A stretch of 32,279 nt of DNA from Alphaproteobacteria bacterium (lineage in GTDB: Bacteria > Pseudomonadota > Alphaproteobacteria > RF32 > CAG-239): contig JAZNVJ010000095.1 of assembly GCA_045592765.1 (NCBI GenBank), positions 1 through 32,279 on the forward strand, written 5' to 3'. Under the pieces are notes generated by a model, which searched no databases, had not been told where the DNA came from, and saw only the letters and a program-made list of their open reading frames with translations. Position 1 is the first letter of the stretch, and each line of letters begins with the position of its first letter. The position numbers were made by a program, and so were the translations under genes. Below, piece after piece: positions 19,062-28,399 of the stretch.

Positions 19062-20096
19062 ATGATTTATCTTGTTTTATGCATTTTAATTTTAATCACT
19101 ACAGGTTTTGCTTTCTGGAATTTAATATTATGGAAAAAACTTAAGCAAACTAAACTCAGCTTGAAAGAATTGCTAAAAGAAGCTGAAGAATTACAATCTG
19201 ATGAAACAGATAACGAAACAGAAATATACTTTAAAGCCGATAGCGAATTTAATATTACATTTATCAGCGAATCGGGAGCAAAATTATTGGGCTATTCTTG
19301 TAATGAACTGCAAGACAAACCCTTAATCGGAACATTATTGGAGAATACACCTGCGCAAATAGAATTACTAAACTCAACCTTAAATAAAATGCGTAAAGAC
19401 CAAAATACATTAACATCTCAATTGTCAATTATTTTGAGCGACGGACAAAAAAAACTTATGTTGTGCAGACTTCGTCCGATATTAAATGAAATTTTGGAAT
19501 GTGCCGGAATTAGCTTTTTATGCACAGACATCTCCGAAGCCTATACTTGGAAGCAAAATCTCACTAACTTTCAAAAAACAGATATTGTAACCAACACCCT
19601 CAATGAAGCTGCTTTATTACATAAATTTGCTCATGATTTTCAATTAGCTAAACGATATAATCGTGAATTTTCTTGTATTGTAATAGAGCTTAAAGATATT
19701 TATGAATTTATCAGCAAAGGAATCGACTTCGAAACTGCAGATAAAATGTTAAGAACAGTTAGTGAGGTATGCGTAAAAACTTTGCCAAACAATGCTGCAA
19801 TCGGGAGAGTTGATAAAACAAAATTCTTTATATTTGCTTCAGGTTGCACAAAAACAGATGCCCATAATTTGGCCGAAACCATACTCCAAAAATCCGTACC
19901 AGCAATTAAAAATCTTCGAGTAGATGAATACAATGCACAAATGATGGTAATAACCTATGCTAACCGCAAAAATTTTAACGATACTTACGATACTATGCTA
20001 TCAAGAGTAAGACGACACATAAACGTTGCATTACGTCAGAGAAATTATGGCATAGTCTCTGCCGATGAACGCAATATTACAAAAATTTATCAGTAA
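19062..20096 (+). CDS. Membrane-anchored PAS sensor with a degenerate GGDEF domain
   Basis: An N-terminal TM helix (LVLCILILITTGFAFWNLILW). A PAS-like segment (FNITFISESGAKLLGYSCNELQDKPL). A GGDEF-fold segment in which the GGDEF signature reads VDKTKF. Confidence 0.6.
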   Translation: MIYLVLCILILITTGFAFWNLILWKKLKQTKLSLKELLKEAEELQSDETDNETEIYFKADSEFNITFISESGAKLLGYSCNELQDKPLIGTLLENTPAQIELLNSTLNKMRKDQNTLTSQLSIILSDGQKKLMLCRLRPILNEILECAGISFLCTDISEAYTWKQNLTNFQKTDIVTNTLNEAALLHKFAHDFQLAKRYNREFSCIVIELKDIYEFISKGIDFETADKMLRTVSEVCVKTLPNNAAIGRVDKTKFFIFASGCTKTDAHNLAETILQKSVPAIKNLRVDEYNAQMMVITYANRKNFNDTYDTMLSRVRRHINVALRQRNYGIVSADERNITKIYQ

Positions 20097-24101: not shown

Positions 24102-24845
24102 ATGGCAAAAATTTCTTGGAAACCAGGAGCAATGCTCTTTCCGCTTCCGCCAGTAATGGTTACGTGCGGAACCATGAAAAAACATAACGTTCTGACTATA
24201 GCTTGGACGGGAATTATAAATTCTGATCCTCCAATGACTTATATATCAGTAAGACCTAGTAGACATTCTTATGGTATAATAAAAAGTCATGGAGAATTTG
24301 TTATAAATATAACAACTCTAGAGTTGGCTAAAGCTTGTGATTATTGCGGAGTAAAATCTGGAAAAAATACTGATAAGTTTAAAGATATGGAACTGGAAAT
24401 TGAGCCTTGTTTAAAAGTAAAGGCTCCAATGTTAAAAAAAGCTCCAGTGTGTTTGGAGTGTAAGGTTTTAGGTTCTAAGCTTTTGGGCACTCATGAAATG
24501 TTTATGGCTGAGATTATCAATGTAAATATTGACAATAAATATATTGAAGCTGATGAACGTCTTGCTTTGGAAAAAGCTGGGTTATTGGTCTTCGCTCATG
24601 GCAGATATTATACTATGGGTAGAGATTTGGGCGGTTTCGGTTTTTCGGTTGATAAAACAAAAGAAAACAAAACCAAACCTCGCAAATCAAAATTTATGGA
24701 GCTTTTAAAACTTGAGCAACAAATTAAAAAAGGAACAGAAAAAATAAAACAAGGAAGACTCCATAATAAATCTCGCCAAAATGAAAAAAAACATTTTAAT
24801 AAAAAGAAGCTTACTACAAAATCCAAGTCTAAATCCCCGAAATAA
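24102..24845 (+). CDS. Flavin reductase-like (FMN-binding split-barrel) protein with a Lys-rich C-terminal tail of about 60 aa
   Basis: The N-terminal 185 aa or so match the flavin_reduct pattern (NVLTIAWTG...DPPM..ISVRPSRHSY..GEFVINI). The tail is KTKENKTKPRKSK...KKKLTTKSKSKSPK. Confidence 0.7.
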   Translation: MAKISWKPGAMLFPLPPVMVTCGTMKKHNVLTIAWTGIINSDPPMTYISVRPSRHSYGIIKSHGEFVINITTLELAKACDYCGVKSGKNTDKFKDMELEIEPCLKVKAPMLKKAPVCLECKVLGSKLLGTHEMFMAEIINVNIDNKYIEADERLALEKAGLLVFAHGRYYTMGRDLGGFGFSVDKTKENKTKPRKSKFMELLKLEQQIKKGTEKIKQGRLHNKSRQNEKKHFNKKKLTTKSKSKSPK

Positions 24846-24859
24846 CTTCGGGGATTTTT
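24832..24859. terminator. Terminator hairpin between convergent genes
   Basis: A 10-bp stem AATCCCCGAA (24832-24841) / TTCGGGGATT (24847-24856) followed by a T-tract. The flavin reductase TAA stop (24843-24845) sits in the loop. Confidence 0.8.
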
Positions 24860-24863
24860 AATA

Positions 24864-25976
24864 TTACATAGACTGTCCTTGATATGCTTTGACTTGAGAG
24901 ACAAATCGTTGAGAAATTATTTGACGATTTTTATTTTCTCTATCATCACCGCCTTTTTTATAAGCTCTATCTAAAGTAGCCTTATAATCACGACCTAATT
25001 TAGTCATAGTATTTAAATATCGCCTATCTTTATCACTAATTTTACCATCTTTGGCAGCTTGCTGAAGTACGACCGTGGCGTCTAAAATACTTTTTTGTTT
25101 TTTAGTTAAACCATTGTATTCTTCTGTCTTTTTAAATTCCTCATATTTGTTAGGATTCATATCCTTATCAGTAACTTTGGCTAAAGCATCTAATCCTTGA
25201 GCAACTTTTTTTTCTGCAACCTCTTTGGTTGTTGAACGTATATCCGAAGCCAAATCAATATTATGCTCCAACATCTCTTTTGCGCTCATAAAATCTTGAT
25301 CATTTACTTCTTGAGGAGCAATTTCTTGAGAAGCAACATTTTCTGGAACTTCTTCTTGCTTCATACCATCTGTTTCTGACAACTTGGCTTGGCTTAGCAA
25401 TTCTTGACGTTTTTCAGTCAAATTGCTAATCGGCATATTACATTCTTGTGCTGCAGCAACAAGCCTATCCAAAAATTCTTGAGATTTGACAGTCCCTAAA
25501 CTAATGCTAGTTTTGCCATCTTGTTGCATAGCCTTAATGATATTTATCAAATCTTCTTTATCTGCTACTTTTTTATTTCCGCTTGAATCCTTAGCAGAAA
25601 CAACATAATTATCAGCATCAGGGCGTTCTACAGACACAAAATTTCCATTTTTAAGATTTTTATATACTAATGTATCTTTACCATAGTCACCAACAACAAT
25701 GCTATACTCAGCAGATTGCATAATATTATCTAGAATAGATTTACTTGTTTGAGAGGCTGGTTTGTTTTTATCTATATCTTCTTCTTGGGGTTTAATCTCA
25801 TTTAATTTACTCTCTTCGGCAGACTTTTTCTGCTCTTTTAATTTTTCAATTTCTTTTTTGAGTGCATTTGAAGCTTCTTCTTTTACTTCTGCAGACATAC
25901 CTTCTGGTAAATTAGCAATCATCCCTTCCAGTTGCTCGATTTTTGTGTTAATATCATTAATCTCATCATTAGTCAT
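24864..25976 (-). CDS. Hypothetical acidic, coiled-coil-rich protein (orphan)
   Basis: An intact ORF. I moved the start to the ATG at 25976 (MTNDEIN...), which is preceded by GAGGAGGA. The N-terminus is Glu/Lys-rich and heptad-like. I recognise no motif. Confidence 0.6.
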   Translation of the reverse strand: MTNDEINDINTKIEQLEGMIANLPEGMSAEVKEEASNALKKEIEKLKEQKKSAEESKLNEIKPQEEDIDKNKPASQTSKSILDNIMQSAEYSIVVGDYGKDTLVYKNLKNGNFVSVERPDADNYVVSAKDSSGNKKVADKEDLINIIKAMQQDGKTSISLGTVKSQEFLDRLVAAAQECNMPISNLTEKRQELLSQAKLSETDGMKQEEVPENVASQEIAPQEVNDQDFMSAKEMLEHNIDLASDIRSTTKEVAEKKVAQGLDALAKVTDKDMNPNKYEEFKKTEEYNGLTKKQKSILDATVVLQQAAKDGKISDKDRRYLNTMTKLGRDYKATLDRAYKKGGDDRENKNRQIISQRFVSQVKAYQGQSM

Positions 25977-26213
25977 AATATCCTCCTCATACATATAGTT
26001 ATATTATAGCTAAATATTGATTAAGGTGCAATTAATTTATATCTAAAAAAATAAGTATAAAAATAAATTTATGAAAATTGCTTTACAATTTAAGGAGATT
26101 TCTTAGTATAAAAATTACGAATAAAATTCGGGGTTTTAATCTTCTTTTTCAACTTGACTTATATTCTCATTTATTTTAGCTTTTTGTTTATGAAACATAT
26201 AAACTTGTTTCTA

Positions 26214-26464
26214 GTACCTGCAGTAAAGGTACGGAGCCGTCAGAAGCTCTTTTGATATACTCGGTGCGTAGATATAGCATCGTTAATTGGTATAGGTATG
26301 GTGTTATATCTATAATCCGATAATATATCCCCGGCTATAAGCATAATGGTCGGGGAGCTTTGGGTGTATGTCCAGAAGTAAACACTTTAAAGACTCAAAG
26401 GAGCATTTAGTATATCATGCTTTCTGAACTCTCCGACCACCTTTCCAGCAGGTGGTTTTTCTTT
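26214..26464 (+). ncRNA. Structured 5' leader (riboswitch-like transcription attenuator) of the RgpF-like/glycosyltransferase operon; class unassigned
   Basis: A G+C-enriched island in an AT-rich spacer. It has several hand-foldable helices plus mutually exclusive anti-antiterminator, antiterminator and terminator pairings. Details are in the findings. Confidence 0.55.
26436..26464 (+). terminator. Intrinsic terminator of the leader, 20 nt upstream of the rgpF-like ATG
   Basis: ACCACCT (26436-26442) pairs with AGGTGGT (26450-26456) around the loop TTCCAGC, followed by TTTTCTTT. Confidence 0.75.
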
Positions 26465-26483
26465 ATCTGCGTGGAGAGATTAG

Positions 26484-27374
26484 ATGCAAACAATTACCCA
26501 ATTACCAGCTTTAGTACATGTACATATATATTATACTGAAATGTGGGATGAATTAAAATCTCACTTAAACAACATTACAATCCCTTATGATTTGCATGTA
26601 ACCTTAGTTAAGTCCAATAAGGTTTTAGAAAATGAAATTATAAATTTCAATCCTCAGTCTAAAATCTGGTTAGTAGAAAATCGAGGTTATGATGTATGGC
26701 CATTCATTAAAGTTTTACAAAATGTAAATCTCGATAAATATGAATTTATAATAAAAATGCATACCAAACGAAACACCGAAGATATTAATGTCAATGGATA
26801 TTTATTTGTCAATGATGAATGGCGCAAAAGTTTGCTTAGATTTGCCGATAGCCGGATGCGCTTTGAAAAAGCTCTAAATAGCTTTAATAATGACTCTTCT
26901 TTGGGAATGATAACATCGTTTGACTGTATTCAACCGATGAAAAAATATAAAGATGTTATCAAATTTGCGAAAAAAAAGTTTCCCAATCATGTGTTCGGGC
27001 TTCGTAATTATAGTTTTGTTGCCGGAACTATGTTTATGGCAAAAGCCTCTATTTTTAAGCCCATTCAAGAAATGAAAATTTTTGCAGAAATGTTTGATAT
27101 TCCGGATAAAGAACATAGCTTGCAGTTTGCTCATGTTTTAGAACGTGTTTTTGGAGAAGCTGTTAAATTTGCTAAATTAGAAATTAAAGATGTTATATCT
27201 ACTGATATTGAAAGAAAAAAGCCACGACAATTTCAAGGGTTTGACATAAACATTTTAGGTTTTAGCTTATTGAAATTAAAGAAAACAAAAAAAGGAAAAT
27301 ACTTACTCAAATTTTGTAAAATACCTATTTTCTCCTTTTTACCTTACAAAAAATCTAAAGGAGAAAAAATATGA
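26484..27374 (+). CDS. Rhamnan-synthesis protein F (RgpF)-like polysaccharide biosynthesis protein
   Basis: VHVHIYYTEMWDEL..., LHVTL, ENRGYDVWPF and IIKMHTKRN follow the RgpF-family pattern. SD GGAGAG lies at 26473-26478. Confidence 0.65.
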   Translation: MQTITQLPALVHVHIYYTEMWDELKSHLNNITIPYDLHVTLVKSNKVLENEIINFNPQSKIWLVENRGYDVWPFIKVLQNVNLDKYEFIIKMHTKRNTEDINVNGYLFVNDEWRKSLLRFADSRMRFEKALNSFNNDSSLGMITSFDCIQPMKKYKDVIKFAKKKFPNHVFGLRNYSFVAGTMFMAKASIFKPIQEMKIFAEMFDIPDKEHSLQFAHVLERVFGEAVKFAKLEIKDVISTDIERKKPRQFQGFDINILGFSLLKLKKTKKGKYLLKFCKIPIFSFLPYKKSKGEKI

Positions 27375-28399
27375 AAAAGAAAAAATCGATTTTATTTACC
27401 GGATTATTTTTTAATTATTATTCCGGTAGTCAAAAATATATTTCAGAAATGGCACTATATATCAAAAAAAAGTATCCTGATTATAACATACAAATAACAT
27501 CTCCTTATATAAAAAAAGAGATTGTCGAACATTTAATAAAAAATGATATTTCGGTTGTCACACCGGATAATATTTGCAACAATATGCTATGGGATATCAT
27601 TATTGCAGCGCATCATTCAATAATTAACACCCTATTAATGCAAAAAATTAAATATAAAAAAATCATAAACTTGATACTTTCACCACACATAAACTTAGAA
27701 AATCCGGTATATTTTCATAAAAAATGCAGTCTGGTTGTAGCTAATTCTGAAGAAACCAAACAAAAATTAATTAAAATCAATAACGTTAAACCTGATAAAG
27801 TTTTTGTTTTACCTAATTTTTTGCCTGATGAATTTATAAATATAGCCCCCTCTAACCATCAACTAAAAAAAATTGCAATTATATCCAACCATGTTCCCTC
27901 TGAATTAAAACTTCTTCCGGTTTTTTTACCTAATATTGCTATAGATTTCATTGGCAGCGAATATAATCAGATAAATGTATCTCCAGAATTTATGGCTGAT
28001 TATGATTTAATTATAAGCATCGGCAAAACAGTCCAATATGCCTTGGGAATGAAAATACCTGTATATGAATATGATGTATTTGGCGGTTGTGGTTATATTA
28101 CTACAAAAAATTTCGTTAACGAAGCCGAGCTAAATTTTTCAGGAAGAGCAACTCGGCGAAAGCTATCTGCAAAACAAATAGCAAACGAAATAATCAATGG
28201 ATATTCATCAACAATAAAACAAATATCGGTTTTACAGCAAATGGCGGTTAAAAAGTTTTCAATGAAAAATATTGATATTTTACTTAATAGCATAAACAAA
28301 CAGCCTTTAACCCCAAAAATAGGCAAGCTCCTGCATATAACTATGCTTTGGCTATCAAAATTTGGCAAATGTAAAAATATACCTTTAAGTAAAGTATAA
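27371..28399 (+). CDS. Putative glycosyltransferase (GT-B-like fold)
   Basis: ATGA overlap with the upstream gene. GT4-like landmarks are present (SILFTG..., LVVANSEETK, KVFVLPNFLPDEF), but I saw no clear EX7E motif. Confidence 0.4.
   Translation: MKKKKSILFTGLFFNYYSGSQKYISEMALYIKKKYPDYNIQITSPYIKKEIVEHLIKNDISVVTPDNICNNMLWDIIIAAHHSIINTLLMQKIKYKKIINLILSPHINLENPVYFHKKCSLVVANSEETKQKLIKINNVKPDKVFVLPNFLPDEFINIAPSNHQLKKIAIISNHVPSELKLLPVFLPNIAIDFIGSEYNQINVSPEFMADYDLIISIGKTVQYALGMKIPVYEYDVFGGCGYITTKNFVNEAELNFSGRATRRKLSAKQIANEIINGYSSTIKQISVLQQMAVKKFSMKNIDILLNSINKQPLTPKIGKLLHITMLWLSKFGKCKNIPLSKV

Follow-up and report, generated by a model that had tools for sequence, protein, structure and literature searches.

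The c-di-GMP riboswitch classes are associated with adhesin, pili-like, secreted and polysaccharide genes. EAR and put RNAs are pseudoknotted RNAs that act in cis and affect read-through at terminators, while the alpha-r14 and alpha-r15 types are multicopy small RNAs of Alphaproteobacteria that carry anti-Shine-Dalgarno motifs and are encoded as stand-alone genes of 100–150 nt in varied orientation. In this study, we relate these systems to a leader RNA found on a 32,279-nt stretch of alphaproteobacterial DNA (contig JAZNVJ010000095.1, referred to below as the window), where it precedes a gene for an RgpF-like protein; all coordinates refer to the + strand. We found this leader to be one copy of a large, previously uncatalogued RNA family. 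Judged by its sequence features, it appears to be a new family of riboswitch-like attenuators with a putative ligand, and its most likely role is to determine whether RNA polymerase continues past the terminator.

The leader family and the genes behind it

The spacer in front of the RgpF-like gene spans 489 nt (25995–26483), rather than the 507 nt given in a preliminary description of this DNA, and is, as that description had noted, AT-rich in its left half (19% G+C) and richer in G+C to the right (41% at 26214–26464). Folding of 26198–26483 yielded -98.5 kcal/mol, compared to -69.6 ± 5.2 kcal/mol for shuffled sequences (z = -5.6), and 0 of 200 shuffles matched this energy. No known RNA family had been recognised by eye, and cmscan against Rfam 15 (4227 models) agrees for both the window copy and its relatives: the whole window returned 0 matches at the gathering score, the segment 25950–26550 returned noise only at E ≤ 10 (E > 1), 20 diverse family members gave three unrelated weak matches at E ≤ 1 (best E = 0.12), and copies of a sister family (see below) gave no meaningful match. 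A literature search found no prior description of the family, a result that applies to published descriptions and not to the individual sequences in bulk candidate lists (for example PMC8040213, a survey of the human microbiome from 2021). Within the 32-kb window there is no second copy, which rules out a local or mobile repeat inside it.

Outside the window, a degenerate-pattern search returned over 120 copies from metagenomes, of which about 50 are non-redundant, together with five matches in viral contigs, and a covariance model gave 157 matches in the collected DNA. Several copies can share a contig, and tandem copies occur. The most prevalent member, the L035 type, is represented at 24 loci. 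A sister family of 165 nt represents a smaller form of the leader. The family belongs to gut Alphaproteobacteria that have not been cultured and to part of their mobile elements; a plasmid collection gave no match. The exact 20-mer GGAGCTTTGGGTGTATGTCC was without a match in the first metagenome scan, and an 18-mer match in viral contigs (L032) proved to be a chance match within a high-G+C coding region. Across loci whose adjacent RgpF-like proteins share only 48–52% identity, the leader itself is 84–86% identical.

Conservation and covariation of the helices in relatives, the check suggested in the preliminary description, gave a strong result on two alignments: A5, a MAFFT alignment of 50 members built from sequence only and fitted to no structure, and A6, which was model-fitted. 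On A5, 92.5% of cells were pairable for the proposed pairs versus 34–46% in slid controls, and compensatory changes were present in 51 of 70 pairs, amounting to 480 cells versus 141 in shuffles (0 of 500 shuffles reached these values). The picture on A6 agrees (61 of 71 pairs). The large number of G-U pairs ties the fold to the + strand. The leader therefore contains a conserved structured domain supported by covariation, as is expected of a riboswitch.

Every complete copy has the same order of predicted promoter, terminator, ribosome-binding site and start codon. Among 46 distinct contexts with enough DNA, 44 have a same-strand open reading frame that begins no more than about 195 nt from the CTCTCCG tail (25–144 nt in the cases found), against an expectation of 50% (binomial p = 1.5e-11), and in 44 the same-strand start codon follows the terminator U-run by 10–60 nt. 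By this arrangement, the leader would lie 5′ of, and in cis to, the gene it controls, a position typical of riboswitches. The genes themselves include autotransporters, nucleases, lipoproteins, XRE regulators and glycosyltransferases; XRE-type regulators are the commonest, another follows the sister family, and very short genes (61–77 aa) are also found behind the leader. Control of cell-surface polysaccharide synthesis, as first suggested, is thus too narrow a description: about 44 unrelated protein families follow the leader, with no shared pathway, and the family is not specific to polysaccharide synthesis.

Promoter, helices and terminator

A predicted leader promoter, recognised by its match to the consensus, is situated at 26154–26182, with a -35 box TTGACT (26154–59), a 17-nt spacer and a -10 box TAGCTT (26177–82), the start of transcription being a predicted one. 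All close relatives retain the -35 box unchanged and in register, and a -35/-10-like pair ending 25–39 nt before P1 was present in 36 of 50 non-redundant members, in a scan for which the sequence of the window clade was incomplete. As modelled from the family, the fold that follows is one of ten helices (P0–P9), with a pseudoknot from the P2 loop to the tail and with P9 crossing P3.

At the 5′ end, P0 is a variable hairpin (GAAACA 26192–97/UGUUUC 26207–12) that lies directly next to P1 in about 45 of the 50 members; it is without sequence conservation, has a mean z of -2.9 versus shuffles and shows compensatory changes in close relatives. P1 (GUACCU/AGGUAC, 26214–26232) and P2 (GGAGC/GCUCU, 26233–26250) correspond to two hairpins previously drawn by hand (H1, 26214–19/26227–32; H2, 26233–37/26246–50), and both exist and covary in relatives on A5 and A6. 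On A5, both partners change in five of the six P1 pairs, and the share of paired cells is 92.6%; in P2 all four of four stem pairs covary. The P2 loop UCAGAA (26240–45) is the 5′ strand of an H-type pseudoknot whose 3′ strand, UUCUGA, lies at 26422–26427, with compensatory changes in 6/6 pairs and 94.3% of cells pairing on A5 (examples of variants are UCAUCG/UGAUGA, UCGAAA/UUUCGA and UAAGAA/UUCUUA). RNAalifold had offered closing pairs GGAG/CUCC and GUGC/GCAU here, which we rejected because distant members show GGAGC to be local (P2), with the loop, not the stem, pairing long-range. P1 as a mimic exchanging strands with the terminator was also rejected, as its covariation, in L035 for instance, does not follow that of the terminator.

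The multi-helix core is closed by P3, in which GAUAUACU (26254–26261) pairs long-range with AGUAUAUC (26409–16); 8/8 pairs covary, with 90% of cells paired on A5 and 98% on A6. Within it, P4 (26262–26282) is a hairpin CGGUGC/GCAUCG with the loop GUAGAUAUA (family consensus AGGAUAU) and is 97% paired on A6, and P5 (26286–26321) has an outer part AUUGG/CCGAU, whose pairs covary on both alignments, and an inner part UAUAGGUAUG/UAUAUCUAUA. In this region the hand fold had placed a long rod, composed of an outer helix (26254–64/26317–29) around a 15-bp hairpin (26269–83/26298–312). This is foldable in the window clade only, and the family consensus replaces it with the long-range helix P3 and the hairpins P4 and P5. 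The P4 loop is complementary to AUAUC(C) preceding P6 in 43 of 50 members, both sides being invariant and the contact putative. A CsrA-type GGA loop in P4 was dismissed, since the window clade has AGA and the motif is not invariant.

P6 (26329–26355, CCCCGGCU/GGUCGGGG, -15.0 kcal/mol) is the proposed anti-antiterminator. It confirms the hairpin H4 of the hand fold, here at 26329–36/26348–55, and is 94.5% paired and nearly invariant, a near-invariance partly fixed by the search pattern, with compensatory pairs limited to 1/8 on A5 and 3/8 on A6; in copies recovered by the covariance model alone it reads UCUCGAC/GUCGGGA. P7 (26358–26400) pairs CUUUGGGU (26358–65) with ACUCAAAG (26393–400), with 7/8 pairs covarying and 97% pairing, and encloses the hairpin P8 (26375–79/26384–88, 3/4 pairs covarying) with a conserved internal loop GUAUGU...UAAAG. 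P9 (26402–26421; AGCAU 26402–06/AUGCU 26417–21) flanks the 3′ strand of P3 and so crosses P3 as a second pseudoknot-like crossing; all 5/5 pairs show some compensatory change, 87–90% of cells pair, and its variants include GCAU/AUGC, UCAU/AUGA, GCCA/UGGC, GUCU/AGAC and CAUUG/CAAUG. The promoter, P0, P7, P8, P9, the pseudoknot 26240–45/26422–27 and the P9–P3 crossing were absent from the earlier hand fold.

The intrinsic terminator (26435–26462) consists of a stem GACCACCU/AGGUGGUU around a loop of 7 nt and of the U-run behind it, and was located by a consensus scan. Its existence was correctly recognised before (here 26435–42/26450–57 plus U-run): it is present in 49/49 complete non-redundant members and 97% of cells pair in the family, with covariation limited to 2/8 pairs on A5 and 6/8 on A6. 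The sequence of its stem is unusually conserved for a riboswitch expression platform. Also as described before, about 20 nt separate the end of the U-run from the ATG at 26484, and this interval contains only the ribosome-binding site GGAGAG (26474–79). Because the terminator immediately precedes ribosome-binding site and start codon, as it does in essentially all copies, downstream expression must come from read-through, in line with the original proposal. The RgpF-like gene with its ribosome-binding site occupies 26474–27374 (Pfam RgpF, E = 3.7e-20); its stop is overlapped by the start of a GT4-like gene (27371–28399; Pfam Glyco_transf_4 below the curated cut-off, E = 8e-6), the second of the presumed controlled unit, and the pair is probably conditionally expressed.

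Proposed helix competition and rival explanations

The preliminary description had pointed to an alternative 11-bp pairing of UGGUCGGGGAG (26347–57) with CUCUCCGACCA (26429–39), and this pairing is present, with a duplex energy of -19.8 kcal/mol. Its proposed 3′ strand belongs to the conserved tail ACUCUCCGACCA (26428–26439), which overlaps the terminator 5′ strand at 26435–39. Across 66 distinct sequences, 97.9% of antiterminator cells are pairable. Formal covariation is weak because both strands are almost invariant: only one pair, with two cells, is compensatory, control shuffles are often as high, and the invariance in metagenome matches is partly built in by three antiterminator blocks fixed by the search pattern. 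Matching changes nevertheless occur in individual copies, namely GGUCGGGAUG with CAU(A)CCCGACC and a P6 5′ strand UCUCGAC (L074), GGUCGGGGUG with CAC(U)CCCGACC (L149), and GGUCGGGGUG with CGCCCUGACU in an upstream copy (L105). The 165-nt sister family keeps the antiterminator logic in other letters (GGUGGAG/CUCCACC, and GAGGAG/CUCCUC in L040). Against this stands one copy (L044:1-171) with an uncompensated A-to-U change. Of the three-helix competition claimed earlier, the conserved complementarity of P6, antiterminator and terminator stands, while formal covariation of the antiterminator is its weak part. Family, fold, position and this conserved complementarity make up the observed portion of the explanation that we consider best.

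In the proposed mechanism, a sigma-70-type promoter would start a leader of about 270 nt, which would fold into P0–P9. The 3′ strand of P6 plus AG (UGGUCGGGGAG) would then serve as a shared strand with two alternative partners. Pairing with its hairpin partner (P6) would leave the tail free, allowing the terminator to form and transcription to stop; pairing with the tail CUCUCCGACCA would remove the first five bases of the terminator stem, and RNA polymerase would read into the gene. The choice between P6 and antiterminator would most likely depend on a cellular signal that binds to the folded core, as in a riboswitch. P6 (-15.0 kcal/mol) together with the terminator (-10.2 kcal/mol) is opposed to the antiterminator duplex (-19.8 kcal/mol); as calculated, these energies would allow a switch, with the terminator state ahead by about 5 kcal/mol in a nested calculation. 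In topological terms the antiterminator crosses both P3 and the pseudoknot, and would therefore need a partly unfolded core or a further pseudoknot. We thus regard 26154–26483, with moderate confidence, as a self-contained control module built as a terminator/antiterminator switch, for which a core-bound signal (a riboswitch) is most likely; action in cis, a working competition and small-ligand sensing are what we infer from it.

The same cis leader and terminator competition could instead answer to a trans-acting macromolecule, such as an RNA-binding protein dedicated to antitermination, a specialised factor of the NusG type that is loaded at the leader, or a further RNA, with the core a binding platform, not an aptamer. 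That the downstream genes resemble a regulon of accessory, surface and mobile-element genes, not a pathway, speaks for this; a gene set without a common pathway fits a protein-controlled regulon equally well. Also in its favour are the conservation of tail and terminator in sequence as well as structure and the prevalence of XRE-type regulators downstream, one of them also behind the sister family. However, an RNA of about 240 nt with ten helices and two pseudoknot-type crossings exceeds the known protein-binding antiterminator targets (RAT, ANTAR and PyrR sites), which are far smaller and less intricate. Furthermore, no candidate protein gene is consistently adjacent, no NusG-like neighbour was seen, and no protein-binding leader of Rfam matches. 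The ops element GGCGGTAG, searched in 24152–28081 with up to one mismatch, has no match near the leader, which also removes an ops/RfaH (JUMPstart) leader from consideration. Overall, we consider control by a trans-acting macromolecule rather unlikely.

Three further explanations concern the product, the polymerase and chance. If the terminated RNA of about 270 nt were itself the product, either as a small RNA that acts in trans and is encoded in multiple copies or as a leader with a dual function, its single-stranded C/U-rich tail ACUCUCC would base-pair with ribosome-binding sites of target mRNAs. Its own promoter and strong terminator, the several and partly tandem copies per contig, upstream tandem copies without a gene directly behind, and a conserved unpaired CUCUCC that borders the terminator on its 5′ side and could pair with ribosome-binding sites of the form GGAGAG/GGAG all speak for such a role. 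A stand-alone small RNA would be free in orientation and spacing, however, and both are fixed in 44 of 46 contexts, where the same-strand gene begins 10–60 nt past the U-run and leaves no space for a second promoter; the tail is moreover complementary to an internal conserved strand, as in an expression platform, and size and pseudoknots go beyond the needs of seed-type small RNAs. We therefore judge this distinctly improbable, though the leader may have a dual role. Still less probable, in our view, is a constitutive action on polymerase or message that senses no signal, be it processive antitermination after the manner of the put RNAs of phage HK022 or the eps-associated RNA (EAR) of Bacillus, or stabilisation of the 5′ end: the pseudoknotted fold, the position ahead of long surface-protein and polysaccharide units and the occurrence in phage-like contigs would suit it, but the leader also precedes genes of 61–77 aa, Rfam models of processive-antitermination elements do not match, and complementarity of the terminator 5′ flank to an internal helix strand is a signature of conditional attenuation, not of processive antitermination. 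A leader-peptide attenuator was rejected, in keeping with the preliminary description: the AUG in P9 runs into the covarying pseudoknot strand, the reading frame is not conserved, and across the conserved tail it differs between members, with an extra base in L035. Chance structure in an ordinary intergenic spacer has a negligible probability; it is refuted by the folding strength (z = -5.6) and more than 150 homologous copies with strong covariation, and retained no support after comparison with relatives.

Broader reading and relation to known systems

Under the riboswitch reading, the variety of downstream genes makes a global signalling molecule likelier than a pathway metabolite. Tentatively, and with clearly less assurance than for the switch itself, the leader may represent a new class of riboswitch, in which a form of about 250 nt stands beside a smaller one of about 165 nt. 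The class would sense a global signalling molecule (a cyclic dinucleotide or other second messenger) and be present in dozens of copies per genome. It might then turn a surface and secreted repertoire on or off in the uncultured Alphaproteobacteria of the gut and in their prophages, a repertoire that includes polysaccharide genes and a set of XRE regulators as well as autotransporter adhesins, extracellular nucleases, lipoproteins and pseudopilins. If so, a large RNA class absent from Rfam 15 and the searched literature, with a complex fold and a size rare among cis-regulators, would come from poorly known, uncultured bacteria of human and animal guts. The downstream gene set (adhesins, secreted nucleases, polysaccharide enzymes, regulators, prophage cargo) would amount to a regulon map of co-switched functions, pointing to a global signal that should be biochemically identifiable. 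With about 50 non-redundant sequences, strong covariation and a sister form, the family is suited to ligand screening, structure work and metatranscriptomes.

Compared to known systems, the leader shares with the alpha-r14/alpha-r15 'cuckoo' small RNAs an alphaproteobacterial origin, several or tandem copies and a C/U-rich unpaired motif by the terminator; unlike them, it consistently runs into the start of the gene that follows, its fold is much larger and it is without an Rfam match. T-box leaders are equally unmatched in Rfam, and the downstream genes are not aminoacyl-tRNA related. Like the RfaH-ops/JUMPstart and LoaP leaders and UpxY 5′ UTRs, it is a conserved leader before hypervariable polysaccharide and surface clusters, whose genes have diverged far more than the leader itself, but its conserved element is a large covarying RNA fold, not a short DNA or RNA signal. 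The EAR (Bacillales) and put (phage HK022) RNAs are likewise structured, pseudoknotted, cis-acting and linked to polysaccharide or phage units. They act on distal terminators, without a conserved terminator of their own and a complementary internal strand, whereas the leader has both, stands also before single short genes and has no Rfam match.

A further close likeness is to transcriptional riboswitches, especially those for c-di-GMP (GEMM-I, RF01051, and c-di-GMP-II), with which the leader has in common a 5′ position and a covarying, pseudoknotted core. The consensus of these classes (the GEMM fold; the class II pseudoknot with kink-turn) gave no cmscan match to the window copy (E ≤ 10) or to 20 relatives (E ≤ 1), and the likeness to c-di-GMP-I/II as such is one of gene context and copy pattern only. 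At about 240 nt the leader exceeds those aptamers in size two- to threefold, its terminator stem and tail are conserved in sequence, and its ligand is putative. What it shares with the c-di-GMP riboswitches is an intrinsic terminator within the leader, opposed by a helix that would compete with it, a high copy number per genome, with copies in tandem and in phage-like DNA, and a mixed set of downstream genes rich in adhesins and in pili-like, secreted and polysaccharide functions.

The leader locus and its relatives beside RgpF-like genes

In the window, the gap between the end of a minus-strand ORF (25994) and the ATG of the RgpF-like gene (26484) is 489 nt, and not 507 nt as given in the preliminary description, whose division of this spacer into an AT-rich left and a G+C-richer right part nevertheless stands (19% G+C in the left part of the gap and 41% at 26214-26464, against 35.5% for the window). 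RNA 26198-26483 folds at -98.5 kcal/mol, compared with -69.6 ± 5.2 kcal/mol for dinucleotide-preserving shuffles (z = -5.6; 0/200 equal it), and 26435-26457 resembles a terminator, with a hairpin and a U-run. The chromosomal setting is ordinary, with flagellin, Sel1, rimP-nusA-ylxR-infB, sucCD, the suf operon, an M23 peptidase, yajC-secD-secF and a flavin reductase. Directly upstream of the leader, the divergent 376-aa ORF (24864-25994, minus strand) had no Pfam match; on the 3′ side of the leader, the RgpF-like gene overlaps a GT4-like gene, and beyond this pair lie a convergent flavin reductase-rubredoxin gene, then a PIF1-type helicase and a ROK kinase.

Relatives of the RgpF-like protein comprise one at 99% identity, one at 71%, embedded in another operon without a leader (L002/L003), and others at 56% or below. 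A genome scan for them yielded 16 loci, the nearest in gut Alphaproteobacteria MAGs. By blastn, the leader itself was matched at loci L005, L006 (two copies), L007, L021-L028 and L031 with 84-86% identity over ~250 nt, while the adjoining proteins are just 48-52% identical, and a TTGACT upstream of the leader is invariant and fixed in position. Conservation of a noncoding stretch far above that of its flanking genes, together with the invariant TTGACT, makes a chance fold impossible, and we have ruled it out.

In these relatives the leader usually follows two outer-membrane beta-barrel genes and precedes genes for RgpF-like, RmlD and WsaF-like glycosyltransferase proteins, and the unit ends either with a resolvase (serine recombinase) gene (L007:5990-6559, L021:5557-5984, L031:5437-5861) or with a second copy of the leader ahead of another RgpF-like gene (L006:4362-4612, L023, L024). 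Since both ends occur in strains with an identical first RgpF-like protein, cassette exchange or recombination at this locus is suggested. In L005:2860-2975, L006:1180-1290 and L021:2485-2590, ~90 nt are inserted between leader and RgpF-like start, a partial duplicate of the 3′ tail and terminator (GAACUAUGGGACCACCUUAUGCCGGGUGGUUUUUU) within a short ORF that starts at the position homologous to the window ATG; in L005 this ORF (29 aa) stops where the RgpF-like gene starts, the two overlapping in ATGA, whereas the L006 and L021 versions are in frame, and gene callers merge them into a 327-aa product. The 99% identical strain L001 (L001:1650-1760 versus window 26100-26215) matches near-perfectly from ~26210 rightwards, at ~75-80% identity in the promoter region and not at all left of ~26100. 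Upstream of its leader are two outer-membrane beta-barrel genes, where the window has the 376-aa ORF on the opposite strand; window 26118-26137 is a surviving relic of the upstream terminator. This comparison points to the leader promoter as the likely breakpoint of a recombination or rearrangement.

Extent and fold of the family

In a phage collection, blastn picked up three distant copies with 70-79% identity across the 3′ half, in "unverified bacteriophage" scaffolds from human stool. Blocks common to these and the window gave the search pattern TATATCCCC-N(8-28)-CGGGGAGC-N(58-84)-CTCTCCG, which matched at least 120 metagenome stretches and 5 viral contigs, with one false positive (L077); the matches listed reduce to 81 unique sequences, or 51 at identity below 90%. 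A covariance model of this large family, R1, found 157 copies in the collected DNA, including tandem copies and diverged variants outside the pattern. Predicted viral contigs with the leader are L156-L160 (IMG/VR) and L033-L035 (GenBank MT835859, MT837206, MT835708), with genes for a PLD-type nuclease and YpsA/SLOG behind it; L034 additionally has a large serine recombinase, and at least one scaffold, L033, looks chromosomal by eye (SecB-like and MltA-like ORFs). Tandem arrays hold two or three copies ~300 nt apart (L054:8593-9509, 5′ of a RadC-like gene; L064:7731-8568(-); L105:1917-2462; L044:1-773), and their upstream copies, each with its own promoter-like site, often lack a terminator or amount to degenerate 3′ halves.

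Structure was assessed on a MAFFT alignment of 50 non-redundant members fitted to no structure, with helices read by eye. Standard pairs fill 92.5% of cells, falling to 34-46% when 3′ partners are slid by 1-3 columns, and 51 of 70 pairs show compensatory changes (480 compensatory cells against 141 ± 11; 0/500 shuffles reach any measure). The model-fitted alignment, which leans towards the model, gives 95.2% paired and 61/71 pairs compensatory. The fold begins with P0 (26192-97/26207-12), conserved in structure and not in sequence, followed by P1 (26214-19/26227-32) and P2 (26233-37/26246-50), whose loop forms a pseudoknot with the 3′ tail (26240-45/26422-27; 6/6 pairs covary). A long-range helix, P3 (26254-61/26409-16), spans the short hairpin P4 (26262-67/26277-82), the separate hairpin P5 (26286-26321), P6 (26329-36/26348-55) and P7 (26358-65/26393-400) enclosing P8 (26375-79/26384-88); P9 (26402-06/26417-21) flanks the 3′ strand of P3 and so crosses it, and the terminator (26435-42/26450-57) precedes the U-run. 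Because G-U pairs are frequent, the fold is specific to the plus strand. The relatives preserve the helices drawn by hand in the preliminary description as H1 (P1), H2 (P2), H4 (P6) and the terminator, and its 11-bp alternative pairing was likewise recovered in place. Its long rod can form in the window clade only; strand 26254-64 covaries with 26409-16 instead.

A sister family of ~165 nt (covariance model R2, 11 copies) shares P1, P2, the pseudoknot, P3, a short P6 and the tail/terminator, without P4 and P5. Its copies, including L079:11718-11889, L124:2418-2597(-), L096:5447-5622 and L040:1163-1343(-), lie 3′ of an autotransporter gene and directly 5′ of a gene for a 77-aa XRE-like regulator, and have no Rfam match.

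Position and downstream genes

A promoter-like -35/-10 pair ends 25-39 nt 5′ of P1 in 36 of 50 members, and an 8-bp terminator with U-run closes every complete non-redundant member. In 44 of 46 distinct downstream contexts (binomial p = 1.5e-11), an ORF on the same strand, preceded by a ribosome-binding site, begins 10-60 nt past the U-run, leaving no room for another promoter. No reading frame is conserved across the leader among family members, in agreement with the earlier view that there is no leader peptide with a credible ribosome-binding site, and no ops element was found near it.

The downstream proteins fall into ~44 unrelated clusters. Secreted or surface proteins include autotransporter beta-domain proteins of ~1000 aa, PLD-type and staphylococcal-type nucleases, about eight small lipoprotein/secreted proteins, a pseudopilin-like protein, DUF805 and ankyrin proteins; polysaccharide enzymes are RgpF-like, GT8, a DXD-type glycosyltransferase and an epimerase; cytoplasmic or regulatory proteins are XRE-type regulators, YpsA/SLOG and RadC-like. 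This diversity means that the RNA is not polysaccharide-specific, and the control of cell-surface polysaccharide synthesis proposed previously is too narrow: the RNA is a general leader of accessory, surface and mobile-element genes.

A candidate switch and its interpretation

The P6 3′ strand together with AG (26347-57) has its complement in the tail CUCUCCGACCA (26429-39), whose bases 26435-39 also belong to the terminator stem. In 66 distinct sequences, pairing is possible for 97.9% of tail/P6-strand cells (50-74% when slid). Switch letters differ in the sister family, where GGUGGAG accompanies CUCCACC (GAGGAG with CUCCUC in L040). The model-only copy L074 has GGUCGGGAUG as P6 3′ strand, UCUCGAC as 5′ strand and tail CAU(A)CCCGACC, so that both partners carry the match to a G-to-A change and an A-U pair is turned into U-A; another, L149, has GGUCGGGGUG with CAC(U)CCCGACC, and the L105 upstream copy GGUCGGGGUG with CGCCCUGACU. 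One copy (L044:1-171) carries an uncompensated A-to-U change. L074:7009-7248(-) and L149:5119-5372(-) represent a diverged subtype with altered P6 and tail (56-60 bits with R1), the latter back-to-back with a standard copy on the opposite strand, 140 nt apart. For the window, energies are -15.0 (P6), -10.2 (terminator) and -19.8 kcal/mol (antiterminator duplex), and the nested terminator state is favoured over a forced antiterminator state by ~5 kcal/mol. The proposed competition between anti-antiterminator, antiterminator and terminator is backed by conserved complementarity, although formal covariation of the antiterminator is weak (1 pair, 2 cells), because both strands are almost invariant and partly fixed by the search pattern. 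Judged from these sequences, the competition likely operates, and it may turn the downstream gene either on or off.

The terminator loop CUUUCCA (26441-26447), which in relatives reads CUCUCCA, complements the ribosome-binding region UGGAGAG (26472-26478), a pairing contained in the minimum-energy fold of 26198-26483. In read-through transcripts of the window clade, a ribosome-binding site masked in this predicted way could add a translational layer. The terminated RNA may alternatively have a trans-acting or dual role; CUCUCC, exposed in this RNA, is complementary to ribosome-binding sites. The main rival retains the same switch and has the fold read by a protein or RNA factor; the size of the leader and its two crossings of pseudoknot type speak for a sensor that is sufficient in itself and against a simple protein site. 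The downstream gene set argues for a global signal, and a second messenger would be our best guess. The window also encodes a PAS-GGDEF protein (19062-20096, plus strand; weak GGDEF domain match, E = 4.5e-7); the organism probably makes cyclic di-GMP, a point that bears on this speculative ligand.

At gathering thresholds, cmscan of the whole window against Rfam 15 gave no matches, and a permissive scan of 25950-26550 returned noise alone (E > 1); the window copy, within the previously delimited 26150-26500, is thus without match to any Rfam family, and 20 diverse members matched none either. We found no prior description in the literature searched; bulk candidate-RNA lists from human microbiomes (PMC8040213) may contain the family unnamed. 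The putative order of promoter, intricate covarying fold, conserved strand with dual pairing, terminator and start codon, seen family-wide, looks like that of a transcription-attenuating riboswitch, and we rate the leader family as a new class whose mechanism would be of a known kind.
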